DNA of 17,650 bases. Origin: a virus (lineage: Duplodnaviria; Heunggongvirae; Uroviricota; Caudoviricetes). The DNA is taken from the IMG/VR virus record IMGVR_UViG_2540341031_000012, one strand, 5' to 3'. The position numbers were made by a program. This document shows, one piece after another, positions 1 to 12,000 of the stretch (position 1 is the first letter of the stretch; the number at the start of each line of letters is the position of its first letter).

Positions 1-3000
1 ATGACGAAGAAAAAAGCACATAAACCTGGTTCAGCGACCATCGCGCTTAACAAGCGCGCCCGTCACGAATACTTTATCGAAGAAGAGTTCGAAGCGGGAC
101 TTGCCCTGCAAGGCTGGGAGGTTAAATCCCTGCGCGCAGGAAAAGCCAATATCAGCGACAGCTACGTCCTTCTGCGTGACGGAGAGGCATTTCTGTTTGG
201 CGCTAACATCACGCCAATGGCCGTGGCCTCCACGCATGTGGTGTGCGATCCTACCCGTACCCGCAAGTTACTTCTCAACCAACGCGAACTGGACTCATTG
301 TACGGTCGCGTCAATCGAGAAGGCTATACCGTAGTGGCGCTCTCCCTGTACTGGAAAAATGCCTGGTGCAAAGTGAAAATCGGCGTCGCCAAAGGTAAAA
401 AACAGCACGATAAACGTTCAGATATCAAAGAACGCGAATGGCAGGTGGATAAAGCACGTATCATGAAAAACGCCCACCGTTAAACCTGCACTCCAATTAT
501 TGACCAGTTCCTCACCGCGCCTCCCTCTCCGGCGGCGCGAATGAACATCTTATTGGCTATCACATCCGACACAAATGTTGCCATCCCATTGCTTAATCGA
601 ATAAAAATCAGGCTACATGGGTGCTAAATCTTTAACGATAACGCCATTGAGGCTGGTCATGGCGCTCATAAATCTGGTATACTTACCTTTACACATTGGG
701 GCTGATTCTGGATTCGACGGGATTTGCGAAACCCAAGGTGCATGCCGAGGGGCGGTTGGCCTCGTAAAAAGCCGCAAAAAATAGTCGCAAACGACGAAAA
801 CTACGCTTTAGCAGCTTAATAACCTGCTTAGAGCCCTCTCTCCCTAGCCTCCGCTCTTAGGACGGGGATCAAGAGAGGTCAAACCCAAAAGAGATCGCGT
901 GGAAGCCCTGCCTGGGGTTGAAGCGTTAAAACTTAATCAGGCTAGTTTGTTAGTGGCGTGTCCGTCCGCAGCTGGCAAGCGAATGTAAAGACTGACTAAG
1001 CATGTAGTACCGAGGATGTAGGAATTTCGGACGCGGGTTCAACTCCCGCCAGCTCCACCACTTACTCTTCCGGATACGTCCGGACAAATCCTGAAAGCCC
1101 GCATGGCACAAGCCCTGCGGGCTTTTTTGTGTCTACTGTTGTCCGAGGATATCCAGCTAAATCCAGTGATTATTGGTATACGTTTAGGTATACGGTAGGA
1201 TGTATACCTAAAGGCGTATACCAATTCATGAAGGAGCGGCCAAAGTGGCAAGAACGACACGCCCCCTGAGCAACACAGAAGTTCTGCGCGCTAAAGCGTT
1301 AGAAAAGGATCTAACGTTGCATGATGGCGATGGTCTTTTTCTGCTCGTTAAAACGAACGGTAAGAAGTTATGGCGTTTCCGTTATCAACGTCCAGCAACA
1401 AAGCAGCGAACAATGATAGGGCTAGGTGCCTTCCCCGCCCTTTCACTTGCTGATGCCCGACGGTTAAGAGCGGATTATCTTTCCTTGTTAGCCAACGGAA
1501 TTGACCCGCAAATTCAAGCTGAAATTGCAGAGGAACAGCAGCAAATCGCACTAGACAGTATTTTTTCAACGGTCGCCACTAACTGGTTCCAGCTTAAAAG
1601 CAAAAGCGTTACCCATGATTACGCGAAAGACATTTGGCGTTCACTAGAAAAAGATGTATTCCCTGCCATCGGTGAGATCCCTGTTCAGCAAATCAAAGCC
1701 CGAACACTTGTTGAAGCCCTTGAGCCAATCAAAGCTCGTGGGGCGCTAGAGACCCTTCGTCGTCTGGTGCAGCGCATTAACGAGATAATGATTTATGCCG
1801 TAAACACTGGTCTGATTGATGCAAATCCAGCATCTGGTATTGGGATGGCTTTTGAGAAACCTAAAAAGCAAAACATGCCGACGCTCCGGCCAGAGGAATT
1901 ATCGAAGCTGATGCGTTCTTTGATTATGTCTAATCTGTCTGTTCCGACTCGCTGTCTAATTGAATGGCAACTCCTGACCATGGTGCGCCCTTCTGAGGCC
2001 TCCGGTGCTCGGTGGGCAGAGTTCGATCTCGATTCAAAGTTCTGGACGATTCCAGCAGAACGGATGAAGGCCAAGCGTGAGCACATTGTTCCTCTGTCTC
2101 CACAGGCATTAGAAATTCTGAAAGTAATGAAACCAATCAGTGCTCATCGTGAACATGTTTTTCCCAGTAGAAATGCCCCTAAACAGTCAATGAATAGCCA
2201 AACTGCTAATGCAGCACTCAAACGCATTGGTTATGGAGGGAAATTAGTTGCTCATGGGTTACGATCCATCGCAAGTACTGCGCTCAATGAAGCCGGATTT
2301 AATCCTGATGTAATTGAAGCAGCACTTGCTCACTGTGATAAGAATGAAGTTCGAAGAGCATATAATCGATCCATTTATCTAGAGCAACGCATTACATTGA
2401 TGGAATGGTGGGGTAATTATGTTCATAATCAAAAACTCATATCGTACAGTTTAAATCATTGCTAAAAAACATCATTCAAATACACAGAAACGAAATAAAA
2501 ACTGCACAATGTTAACTTTTCAAAGATGGCTCAATAAGAGCCATCTTTAATTTTAACGTTTAGTCACTGTTATGCTCGTGCTGAAAGGAGGATATGCTGA
2601 AGTTGAATGCACTTCATCATAAACTGCTACCACATTACCACTTTCATCTAATTGATGATAAACATACTCATCATTATCGCGTCCTCTTTTTAATCCTTTC
2701 CACTCCATTGATACTTGTTCAATAGTATGGTTATCTGGAATTGAAAATTTCTTTCTAACATTATCTGACATAATTAAAGCCCTTTCATTTTTGTCTAATT
2801 AAAATATCTTTAACATTCGACCATTCATTTAACAAACCAATATTCACATTACCATCTGCAACTCTCACATTAATAACCTCCGGTCTTAAGCCTGATAATT
2901 CATGAAGAAGCCTTGAGCTTTCAATAGAAAATGCTTTGAGAGAGTTAAATCCAATTATCACCCGATTAAAATACTGCTCACTTATTCGCTGAACACCTAA

Positions 3001-9000: not shown

Positions 9001-12000
9001 AATCCGGCCCCCTGAAGGCCGCGCCGTCGCTGTCCTTTCTCGGGCTGGTTGTGATGGATGAACTCTGTGCCCGTCACATAAAAGCGCCGGTACTGCACTG
9101 AAGGAGAACAACACCATGAAAATGAACGTAACCGCCACCGTCAGCCATGCGCTCGGCCACTGGCCGCGTATTCTCCCGGCGCTGGGGATTCAGGTGCTGA
9201 AGAACCGTCATCAGCCCTGTCCGGTCTGTGGCGGGAGTGACCGCTTCCGTTTTGATGACAGGGAGGGGCGCGGCACCTGGTACTGCAATCAGTGTGGTGC
9301 CGGTGACGGCCTGAAACTGGTTGAAAAGGTGTTTGGTGTTTCCCCGTCCGATGCGGCCGCAAAGGTGGCTGCCGTGACCGGCAGCCTGCCCCCGGCTGAC
9401 CCGGCAGTGACGGCTGCCGCCGGTGCTGAAACAGACGCTGCCCGGAAGAACGCCGCCGCACTGGCACAAACCCTGATGGCGAAAACCCGTCCCGGAACCG
9501 GTAACGCCTACCTGACCCGCAAGGGCTTTCCCGGCCGGGAATGCCGGATGCTGACCGGCACACACAGAGCCGGTGGCGTGAGCTGGCGCGCCGGTGACCT
9601 TGTGGTGCCACTGTATGACGACAGCGGCGAACTGGTTAACCTTCAGTTAATCAGTGCTGACGGCCGTAAGCGCACCCTGAAAGGCGGACAGGTCAGGGGC
9701 ACCTGTCACATCCTTGAAGGACAGAATCAGGCCGGAAAACGTCTGTGGATAGCGGAGGGATACGCGACCGCACTTACCGTGCATCACCTGACCGGTGAAA
9801 CGGTGATGGTGGCGCTTTCTTCCGTGAACCTCCTTTCTCTGGCCAGCCTTGCCCGGCAGAAGCACCCCGCCTGTCAGATTGTCCTTGCCGCTGACCGTGA
9901 CCTCAGTGGTGACGGCCAGAAAAAAGCCGCCGCAGCCGCAGATGCGTGTGAAGGTGTTGTTGCCCTGCCGCCGGTCTTCGGTGACTGGAATGATGCCTTC
10001 ACGCAGTACGGCGGGGAAGCCACCCGTAAGGCCATTTATGATGCAATCCGGCCACCGGCTGAAAGCCCGTTCGACACCATGAGCGAAGCGGAGTTTTCCG
10101 CCATGAGTACCAGCGAAAAGGCCATGCGTATCTATGAGCATTACGGCGAGGCGCTCGCGGTCGATGCCAACGGCCAGCTTCTGTCCCGCTATGAAAATGG
10201 TGTCTGGAAGGTGCTGCCACCACAGGACTTTGCCCGGGATGTGGCCGGGCTGTTTCAGCGGCTGCGCGCGCCGTTCTCCTCCGGGAAGGTGGCCTCCGTG
10301 GTGGACACCCTGAAGCTGATTATTCCGCAGCAGGAAGCCCCCTCCCGCTGCCTGATTGGCTTTCGTAACGGCGTGCTCGACACGCAGAACGGCACGTTCC
10401 ACCCGCACAGTCCGTCACACTGGATGCGTACCCTGTGTGATGTGGATTTCACCCCGCCGGTGGACGGTGAAACGCTGGAAACCCACGCTCCCGCGTTCTG
10501 GCGCTGGCTTGACCGTGCCGCCGGTGGCCGTGCGGAAAAACGCGACGTGATTCTGGCCGCACTGTTTATGGTGCTGGCAAACCGCTACGACTGGCAGCTC
10601 TTTCTGGAGGTGACCGGTCCCGGCGGCAGCGGCAAAAGTATCATGGCCGAAATAGCCACCCTGCTGGCCGGGGAGGATAACGCCACGTCGGCCACCATTG
10701 AGACGCTGGAATCCCCGCGTGAACGTGCCGCGTTAACTGGCTTCTCACTGATACGCCTGCCGGACCAGGAAAAATGGAGCGGCGACGGAGCCGGACTCAA
10801 GGCCATCACCGGCGGCGATGCGGTGTCCGTTGACCCGAAATACCGGGATGCGTACTCCACGCATATCCCGGCGGTGATTCTGGCCGTGAACAATAACCCG
10901 ATGCGCTTCACCGACCGCAGCGGCGGCGTGTCACGCCGGCGGGTGATTATTCACTTCCCGGAACAGATAGCCCCGCAGGAGCGCGACCCGCAGCTTAAGG
11001 ACAAAATCACCCGCGAGCTGGCGGTCATCGTGCGTCACCTGATGCAGAAGTTCAGCGACCCGATGCTCGCCCGGTCACTGCTTCAGTCCCAGCAGAACTC
11101 AGACGAGGCGCTGAACATCAAACGGGATGCCGACCCGACGTTTGATTTTATCGGCTATCTGGAAACCCTGCCGCAGACCAGCGGCATGTATATGGGGAAC
11201 GCCAGTATCATCCCGCGTAATTACCGTAAATACCTCTATCACGCCTATCTGGCCTACATGGAGGCAAACGGCTACCGGAATGTACTCAGTCTGAAAATGT
11301 TCGGGCTGGGGCTGCCGGTGATGCTGAAGGAATACGGGCTGAATTACGAGAAGCGCCATACCAAACAGGGGATACAGACCAACCTGACGCTGAAAGAGGA
11401 AAGCTACGGCGACTGGCTGCCAAAATGTGACGACCCTGCAACAACCTGCCCCACCTGACCGGCATCTGCCGGTCTTTTTTTTATCCCGACCTCCCCCGAA
11501 GGTGAACAATCCACTGTTCACCCTTCACCGTATATTCACCCGTTATCACACTGAAATTAAAAGAGAAAAACGAAAGGTGAACAGTGTGAACAATCAAATC
11601 AAAAAAAACTTTTTTCTTCCTGAGTGATTTCAGTGCGGAGGATTAATCACCGGTATGAGTCACACCGGCAGAATGCCGGAGGTGAAGAATCGAATGTTCA
11701 CCCTTCACCCATTATTCACCACCTATCATACTGAAATAAAAGGATAAAAAAGAAAGGTGAACAGTGTAAACAGTTCTTTCGAAAAAAAATTTTTTCCTGT
11801 ACGATATAGCATCAATCCAAGTAAAAATGCGCTTTCATTTCACATTAACTTACAGCCATTGGTATACGATTAGGTATACGCACAAAAACTGAATTAAACA
11901 AAATCATTAAAAATCAAAGCAATACAATATTTATTCAAACTCCGCCAGCTCATGATTGGACGGTATAAGGACAACACCAATAAAAACAGGAAGTTAGCAG

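Follow-up and report, generated by a model that had tools for sequence, protein, structure and literature searches.

Positions 1046-11951 of the IMG/VR virus record IMGVR_UViG_2540341031_000012 very probably hold a mosaic P4-type satellite, in which a P4 core is joined to an integrase (int) and attachment (att) module of the CP4-57/ssrA type and to a cargo of two genes with low guanine-plus-cytosine (GC) content. Below, the whole stretch of DNA that was analysed, 17,650 nt in length, is referred to as the window. The genes and cis-acting sites of the element are intact, and we infer from them that it would act as a satellite. From core to core it measures 10,896 bp, 94% of the length of P4. 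All seven components (7/7) of Type A P4-like satellites, defined as co-localised homologues of int, psu, delta, sid, alpA/vis, epsilon, and alpha (Moura de Sousa & Rocha 2021, PMC8628076), are present at full length and in the P4 order. A preliminary description of this DNA had proposed an apparently complete P4-like satellite at ssrA (1037-11955); the proposal is borne out, with every feature that it listed lying at or near the place it had been assigned. What is new here is an individual element of an abundant and already catalogued kind, and the cargo pair is the only part that might hold new biology.

The element is inserted in chromosomal DNA like that of Escherichia coli K-12, to which its flanks (window 1-1131 and 11933-17650) align at 96-97%; in K-12 the same site is occupied by the 22-kb prophage CP4-57. 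The left flank carries two genes:

1-483: smpB, at the window start
698-1060, plus strand: ssrA (transfer-messenger RNA, tmRNA), the integration target, identified by ARAGORN and by Rfam RF00023 at 295.8 bits

The P4 core

The core is collinear with P4 from cos to crr (window 4435-11795). In a blastn alignment, window 4462-11795 matches P4 4291-11624 on the reverse strand with 97.75% identity over 7335 columns, and a further 27 nt (4435-4461) are an exact match to the P4 left end. The alignment contains two gaps of 1 nt, both in non-coding DNA: one falls within the ori spacer (6831), the other within the T-run of the alpha terminator (11475). Alignment to CP4-57 recovers the int and att module only. 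When every annotated P4 protein was searched against the window by tblastn, the matches in the core were full-length and gap-free, and gop, beta, and cII had no match within the window. The genes of the core, with one open reading frame (ORF) of the cI region, are as follows:

4626-5198, minus strand: psu (capsid decoration, Rho antagonist), 98.4% identical to P4 Psu
5272-5772, minus strand: delta (activator of helper late genes), 97.6% identical to P4 Delta
5769-6503, minus strand: sid (capsid size determination), 98.4% identical to P4 Sid, its stop overlapping the delta start
7055-7321, plus strand: vis/orf88 (AlpA-family excision and late regulator), 98.9% identical to P4 orf88
cI-region ORF: 95.0% identical to its P4 counterpart
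7910-8197, plus strand: epsilon (helper derepression), 99.0% identical to P4 Epsilon
8190-8645, plus strand: orf151, 98.0% identical to P4
8781-9101, plus strand: orf106/cnr, 100% identical to P4
9116-11458, plus strand: alpha primase-helicase, 780 aa, 99.1% identical over 776 aa, gap-free
11457-11474: alpha terminator, from a pattern scan

The overlap reported earlier for psu-delta-sid is found between sid and delta, which share 4 nt as they do in P4. Neither frameshifts nor stops nor deletions were detected in int, psu, delta, sid, vis, epsilon, cnr, or alpha; the preliminary description had named frameshifts or deletions in alpha, sid, or int as evidence that would count against it. Alpha is 780 aa long, compared with 777 in P4, because substitutions removed the P4 stop codon: TGA reads TGC (window 11444-11458), and the protein ends ...DDPATTCPT where that of P4 ends ...DDPTTA. 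In relatives such as TW10722, Alpha stays at 777 aa.

Cis-acting sites and immunity RNA

The sites on which replication, packaging, and regulation of P4 depend accompany the genes:

4436-4496: cos packaging site, 90-93% identical to P2-family cos (93% to P2 cos)
6538-6555: Psid activator dyad TGT-N12-ACA, upstream of sid, identical to P4
6673-6776: ori, six type I iterons TGTTCACC, at positions that match the P4 annotation
6880-6909: type II ori repeats in variant form, 3 x 10 bp, CTTCAGAACC, CTTTGAGACC, CTTCCAGTCC
6935-6952: PLL activator dyad TGT-N12-ACA, upstream of vis, conserved with one change within N12
7357-7665, plus strand: immunity region, with a promoter-like site at 7357-7386 and a terminator at 7450-7464 (pattern scan)
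7380-7432, plus strand: a1b1 targets, Rfam c4-a1b1, above the gathering score
7578-7665, plus strand: CI (C4-family) RNA, Rfam C4, 74.5 bits, above the gathering score
11496-11616 and 11676-11796: crr, two 120-bp direct repeats at 180-bp spacing with type I iterons, 98% identical to P4

The cos site is of the P2 type and lies between int and psu. Its 19-nt cohesive end, GTGCTTTCCCCGCCTCGCC (4443-4461), and the left end of P4 are exact reverse complements of each other, in agreement with the match to the P2/P4 cohesive end that had been described. The dyad upstream of sid we take, from established knowledge of P4 and P2, to be the Psid activator site. The type I iteron TGTTCACC occurs 13 times in the window, 20-fold more often than the 0.64 copies expected, with six copies in ori and five exact ones in crr. 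Three Rfam families scored above their gathering scores in the immunity region (RF03163, RF01394, and RF01695). Thus, the iterons, crr, and RNA immunity region of the preliminary description are all present, as judged by pattern counts, repeats, and Rfam, respectively. The Rfam family isrK matches (72 bits) at 7393-7470, overlapping the P4 a1b1/immunity leader; this small RNA family of Salmonella and the P4-type immunity region seem to be one and the same.

One patch of the core, window 6820-6925, is strongly diverged, and it is the only one. It surrounds the type II ori repeats, which read CTTTAAGTGG, CTTTAAATGA, and CTTTAAGTGG in P4 and differ in the window. Co-variation of the repeat variant with the type of integrase was considered and rejected, since two relatives (L015 and L017) share the integrase yet keep P4-type repeats. 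A literature search on Vis binding sites and type II repeats returned nothing relevant.

Integrase and attachment module

Upstream of cos and downstream of crr, the window carries the two halves of a recombination module of another lineage, including the left and right attachment sites (attL and attR):

1048-1060, plus strand: attL identity block GCCAGCTCCACCA, the last 13 nt of ssrA
1110-1130, plus strand: terminator-like hairpin (1110-1124) and T-run, just inside the element, from a pattern scan
1175-1182 (plus), 1187-1194 (plus), and 1215-1222 (minus): putative arm-type sites GGTATACG of the P' arm, just upstream of int
1245-2465, plus strand: tyrosine integrase, 406 aa, CP4-57 IntA type
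11861-11880, plus strand: putative arm-type sites GGTATACG of the P arm, two copies, left of attR
11934-11951, plus strand: attR, shortened, TTCAAACTCCGCCAGCTC

The integrase has the Pfam domains Arm-DNA-bind_3, Phage_int_M, and Phage_integrase, reaches 593 bits with NCBIfam PRK09692 (cut-off 434), and retains the catalytic R, HxxR, H, and Y. It is 60% identical to CP4-57 IntA over the full length (405 aa), versus 36% to P4 Int, as anticipated by the earlier claim of an ssrA-specific integrase that is not of the P4 type. Because P4 homology ends exactly at the outer crr edge (P4 position 4291), we conclude that the whole int and att module was exchanged. The octamer GGTATACG is present in five copies in the window, compared with 0.33 expected, all of them within the two att arms, as would result if integration had divided the arm-type sites of a single attP between the two ends. 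The module targets the last 13 nt of the tmRNA gene and provides ssrA with a new 3' end and a new terminator. The sequence of the replacement terminator for ssrA is common to the window and to the left end of CP4-57 in K-12. Vis, which is itself of the P4 type, is 36% identical to CP4-57 AlpA.

The eroded attR and its predicted consequences for ssrA

The preliminary description had placed the right end of the element at 11955. An att site is indeed present there (11934-11951), although it is shortened relative to the intact copies found elsewhere. Its exact match to ssrA spans only 10 nt, CCGCCAGCTC. Of the 13-nt repeat of the ssrA 3' end, GCCAGCTCCACCA, attL is complete and attR retains only GCCAGCTC (8/13 nt); where intact relatives run on as ...GCCAGCTCCACCAATCATGATTGG, the window reads GCCAGCTCATGATTGG, with 8 nt lost. 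Comparison of attR among copies of the same P arm elsewhere (positions L008 23164-23190, L015 12440-12470, L054 1812-1850, and L055 621-660) gave the following series:

L054, adjoining ypjA: ...ACTCCGCCAGCTCCACCAATCATGATTGG, intact
L055, adjoining another island: ...GCCAGCTCCACCACTTTTTAG, intact
K-12 and TW10722: GCCAGCCCACCA, 1 nt lost
L015-L017: GCCAGCCAATCATG, 5 nt lost
window: GCCAGCTCATGATTGG, 8 nt lost

The junction with the 5-nt deletion, adjoining ypjA, is common to 189 genomes. All three deletions (1, 5, and 8 nt) can be placed immediately after GCCAGC, and they are independent events in different lineages. These recurrent deletions may mark the point of integrase cleavage, or they may be the footprints of aberrant cleavage. 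Excision of CP4-57 is reported to carry the T357 deletion of its attR into ssrA (PMC10107115). Because excision moves this deletion, crossover in the CP4-57 integrase family must lie to the left of T357, and the GCCAGC segment, where the CP4-57 crossover would lie, is kept in the window attR.

Precise excision would thus yield an intact attP, predicted to read ...ACTCCGCCAGCTCCACCACTTACTC..., and a chromosomal ssrA ending ...GCCAGCTCATGATT, without CCACCA (predicted scar ...CCCGCCAGCTCATGATTGG). The tmRNA would then probably be left without CCACCA, and is predicted to be crippled more severely than by excision of CP4-57. Since excision would damage tmRNA in this way, mobilisation of the satellite and the ribosome-rescue status of the host strain would be linked. 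In addition, the missing bases may weaken integrase binding, so that the attR core may be a poor substrate.

Mobilisation and alternative readings of the element

Established P4 biology suggests how the element would behave. The prophage would be silenced by the CI RNA. In a cell that also harbours a P2-family helper, Epsilon would derepress that helper, and Delta, together with helper Ogr, would activate Psid and PLL. Alpha would replicate the excised circle from ori and crr, Sid would build small capsids, Psu would decorate them, and the helper terminase would cut at cos. The determinants of replication and packaging are intact, and excision is plausible. The earlier suggestion that the element can still be excised, replicated, and packaged therefore holds for the determinants of its last two steps, whereas excision has to be qualified: it is the weakest step, because attR is eroded and because Vis and Int come from different lineages.

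A single IMG/VR contig matched the predicted attP junction. This contig, L053 (IMGVR_UViG_2600255186_000010; 10,182 bp), is circularly permuted: its ends abut inside alpha, which reads across the junction at full length, and its circular order is crr, attP, int, cargo, cos, psu, delta, sid, and the remaining P4 set. Its Int is 90% identical to that of the window and has the same att core, and its cargo, of ~1.7 kb, is a different one. Because L053 is a circle with the predicted attP, a P4-type core with this type of Int and att site does exist in excised form. The contig is evidence that the element was excised or episomal in an isolate that has been sequenced. The window element itself, with its cargo, recurs in TW10722 at 98.9% identity with a different right neighbour, and right junctions of the same element differ across strains (TW10722 and L055).

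Several observations weigh against the reading of an intact mosaic satellite. Eight nt of the identity block (TCCACCAA) are missing from attR, and its exact junction occurs in no complete E. coli genome (best match 98.3%). The predicted attP of the window element was absent from complete E. coli genomes and plasmids, where the search matched only tandem-island junctions at ~85% identity, and metagenome contigs were also negative. A P4-type Vis is paired with a non-P4 Int of a different lineage, variants stand in place of the three type II ori repeats, Alpha has three extra residues relative to P4, and the DNA upstream of the cargo yielded no consensus promoter. Finally, the window does not reveal whether a helper resides in the strain.

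These points bear on two other explanations of the region. That it is a mere CP4-57-like cryptic prophage remnant, which shares its integrase with P4-like elements and is no satellite, would fit the presence of CP4-57 with a related integrase at the same site in K-12; however, nothing outside the int and att module matches CP4-57, and with 7.3 kb at 97.75% identity to P4 and all satellite functions carried, we count this extremely improbable explanation as refuted. A serious rival, which we regard as possible without favouring it, is that the satellite is anchored and domesticated. Its genes would be intact, its excision from the decayed attR inefficient, and the element would be inherited vertically as a defence island fixed at ssrA, with cargo renewed by homologous recombination at int and cos. 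Such a state is suggested by the attR deletions that abut GCCAGC and differ, as independent events, from lineage to lineage (1 nt in K-12 and TW10722, 5 nt in L015-L017, 8 nt in the window), by the long residence to which the junction shared by 189 genomes points, and by relatives with the same int, flanks, and core that differ in cargo alone, with breakpoints at 2430 and 4436; moreover, no excised copy of the window element type was found in E. coli genomes or plasmids. On the other hand, the helper-exploitation genes are all under evident purifying selection, with zero pseudogenes, and CP4-57 excises although its attR is imperfect (PMC10107115). The GCCAGC segment at which crossover is inferred is still in attR, a relative with the same Int type occurs as a circle (L053), and the same element has different right neighbours in TW10722 and L055. 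A mosaic P4-type satellite thus remains our preferred reading.

A two-gene cargo in the psu-int hotspot

The DNA between int and cos, whose cargo the preliminary description did not mention, is the variable psu-int hotspot of P4-like satellites described previously (Rousset et al. 2022, PMC9122126). Its low GC content sets it apart from the core:

2431-4435: variable psu-int hotspot, GC 33-36% versus 51-64% in the core
2553-2771, minus strand: cargo gene 2, 72 aa
2785-4092, minus strand: cargo gene 1, 435 aa

The borders were defined by two relatives (L016 and L017) whose flanks, int, and core are 96-99% identical to the window and whose cargo is different: homology stops at 2428/2430 and resumes at 4436/4437, at cos. 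Table S1A of PMC9122126 gives the cargo pair (WP_001212158 + WP_001774581) as 'hypothetical + hypothetical'; going by accession, the systems that were assayed in that study do not include it. Neither protein had a match in Pfam or NCBIfam, or in PADLOC-DB v2.0.0 at E<=0.01. In PHROGs, the 435-aa protein matched only PHROG 14906, a family of unknown function, and a profile search of PDB sequences gave no match.

The family of the 435-aa protein is small (44 clusters at E<=1e-3), and only 4 clusters were found for the 72-aa protein. In an alignment of 37 sequences of the larger family, E140, D158, T160, N161, R164, G166, D167, E180, K182, R192, R195, and Q196 are invariant. An AlphaFold model of the 435-aa protein (predicted local distance difference test, pLDDT, 85; predicted template modelling score, pTM, 0.84) consists of a helical hairpin (4-116), an alpha-beta-beta-beta-alpha-beta unit, and a C-terminal alpha/beta domain. 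D167 and E180-x-K182 fall at PD-(D/E)xK catalytic positions in this model, and the core set can be given as E140, D167, and E180-x-K182. Matches to known nucleases are weak, with 3 of the 37 family members matching Hjc and one matching R.HinP1I at E 0.05-0.08. Unlike PD-(D/E)xK nucleases such as Hjc, to which it has no significant match, the protein has a long N-terminal helical hairpin and an extra C-terminal domain. A shortened model (residues 118-435), in which the nuclease part had a pLDDT of 40-60 and only weak nuclease matches, was discarded.

The 72-aa gene is real. Between the window and diverged P4-like satellites of another enterobacterial lineage its product shows 92% identity, and between the window and a P2-like prophage of Pantoea 75%; it is thus better conserved than its 435-aa partner (86% and 56% in the same two groups); in those satellites and in Pantoea, the 72-aa gene always lies directly downstream of the 435-aa gene. 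Satellites of the other lineage (L011, L013, and L014; smpB ~81% identical) have an ssrA-int-cargo-cos-psu block that is 86% identical to window 648-5185, and the rest of their P4-like core is only 70-80% identical. From these identities, Int and the cargo pair appear to travel together. P2-like prophages, in Pantoea and on one metagenome contig, carry the pair as well; there it is flanked by gpA and the portal gene, at the cos-proximal P2 hotspot. The cassette spans 8001-9557 in the Pantoea sp. locus (L010) and 8001-9554 in L009, where the small gene is a pseudogene. P4 and P2 have been reported almost never to share defence genes (Moura de Sousa et al. 2026, PMC13586616).

Distant homologues of the 435-aa protein (25-44% identical) were found at 35 loci, in Beta-, Gamma-, and Alphaproteobacteria and a few others, and the 72-aa gene is absent beside them at these loci. 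At 21 of the distant-homologue loci, the 120 ORFs within 3.5 kb were scanned. Among these neighbours were a full-length Dsr1, 4-7 ATPases of the GajA/Old/AriA type with UvrD-type helicases, three integrases, three SIR2 proteins, and two ThsB-TIR proteins. The surroundings in L019 (1359-5189) and L020-L041, with Dsr1, Gabija-like, Old/PARIS-like ATPase, SIR2, and Thoeris-TIR genes, are defence islands.

Possible functions of the cargo

From its location and motif, the cargo probably serves in anti-phage defence, as a nuclease effector (435 aa) that works with a 72-aa partner. Six of eight randomly chosen unknown P4 hotspot loci were protective against phages (PMC13586616), and a role in defence is the most likely one because this result, the hotspot location, the defence neighbours of the homologues, and the motif point to it when taken together. 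We give roughly even weight to the more specific proposal that the 435-aa and 72-aa cassette is a previously uncharacterised defence system, made up of a PD-(D/E)xK-like coiled-coil nuclease and its small partner and carried by P4-type satellites and P2-type phages. If so, helper and satellite would, unusually, share one system, each at a cos-proximal hotspot, with the cassette in satellites of E. coli and relatives and in Pantoea P2-type phages, and with single-gene relatives in Proteobacterial defence islands. As a candidate for defence, it has clear borders (2431-4435), testable catalytic residues, and a presence in both P4 and P2 hotspots.

The cargo might instead have a role that is not antiviral, either as an addiction (toxin-antitoxin) or stabilisation module or as a factor that acts on the helper, e.g., a nuclease directed against helper replication or packaging to the benefit of the satellite. 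In favour of such roles are the two-gene layout, with a second gene that is small and highly conserved, the behaviour of the P4 hotspot genes gop and beta as a toxin-antitoxin pair (PMC9122126), and the position of the cargo, which directly adjoins cos. We nevertheless consider such roles unlikely. The distant homologues are single genes without the small partner, which is atypical of toxin-antitoxin pairs, and their neighbours are defence genes. The same pair is also carried by a P2-like phage of the helper type, which speaks against an action on the helper. Toxin-antitoxin behaviour and defence can, moreover, coexist.

The right flank

The genes to the right of the element are ypjA, an autotransporter gene that is broken; pinH, of which a remnant is left; and ypjCB, which is intact:

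12109-15493, minus strand: ypjA/ehaD autotransporter gene, with an internal deletion of ~1.3 kb relative to K-12, between repeats (junction 12582-12594)
~15709-15948: pinH remnant
16099-16156: third att-like copy, TTCAGACACCGCCAGCTC, with a strong terminator hairpin at 16129-16156, adjoining the pinH remnant
16277-17650, minus strand: ypjCB, one intact ORF of 457 aa (DUF5507 + DUF5508); K-12 has separate ypjC and ypjB

The ypjA reading frame is broken into ORFs of 1009 aa and 108 aa, and the gene is annotated as 'frameshifted' in the relative L016. A 157-aa ORF at 15677-16150 is probably spurious, as it has no family match and overlaps the pinH remnant. The third copy of CCGCCAGCTC (16107) is unlikely to have arisen by chance, since TTCAGAC precedes CCGCCAGCTC here too and a strong terminator comes after it. 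The copy resembles an ssrA end that was displaced earlier and kept the terminator it had at first; the ypjA-pinH segment would therefore be an ancient island in a tandem array.

Prevalence and comparison with known systems

Elements of this kind are common. Some match to the element was found in 2408 of 5426 complete E. coli genomes, and 292 of the 5426 hold at least 80% of it in one place. The whole window is covered to at least 80% in 114 genomes, and at least five complete E. coli genomes hold the whole element with the same cargo. As a satellite, it is of limited interest: many E. coli genomes carry P4-like elements, the swapping of integrases between such elements has been documented, and the arrangement itself is found in hundreds of genomes.

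Compared with P4 (NC_001609 / X51522), the element has the same order, cos-psu-delta-sid-ori-vis-CI RNA region-epsilon-orf151-cnr-alpha-crr, with proteins that are 95-100% identical. It differs from P4 in its Int (36% identical), in its att site (ssrA, where that of P4 is leuX), in the replacement of gop-beta-cII by the 435-aa and 72-aa pair, in its length (10.9 kb, versus 11.6 kb for P4), in its variant type II repeats, and in an Alpha that is 3 aa longer. With CP4-57 (K-12, intA) it shares the ssrA insertion point, an Int that is 60% identical, similarity over the first ~70 bp that includes the replacement terminator, and a decayed pseudo-ssrA end at attR that is followed by ypjA. Unlike the element, CP4-57 is 22 kb long and lacks psu, delta, sid, alpha, and cos. 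Integrase exchange is frequent among P4-like satellites (PMC8628076), and in its architecture, cos-adjacent hotspot, integrase exchange, and cargo swapping the element resembles the P4-like satellites that have been published (PMC9122126, PMC8628076, PMC13586616).

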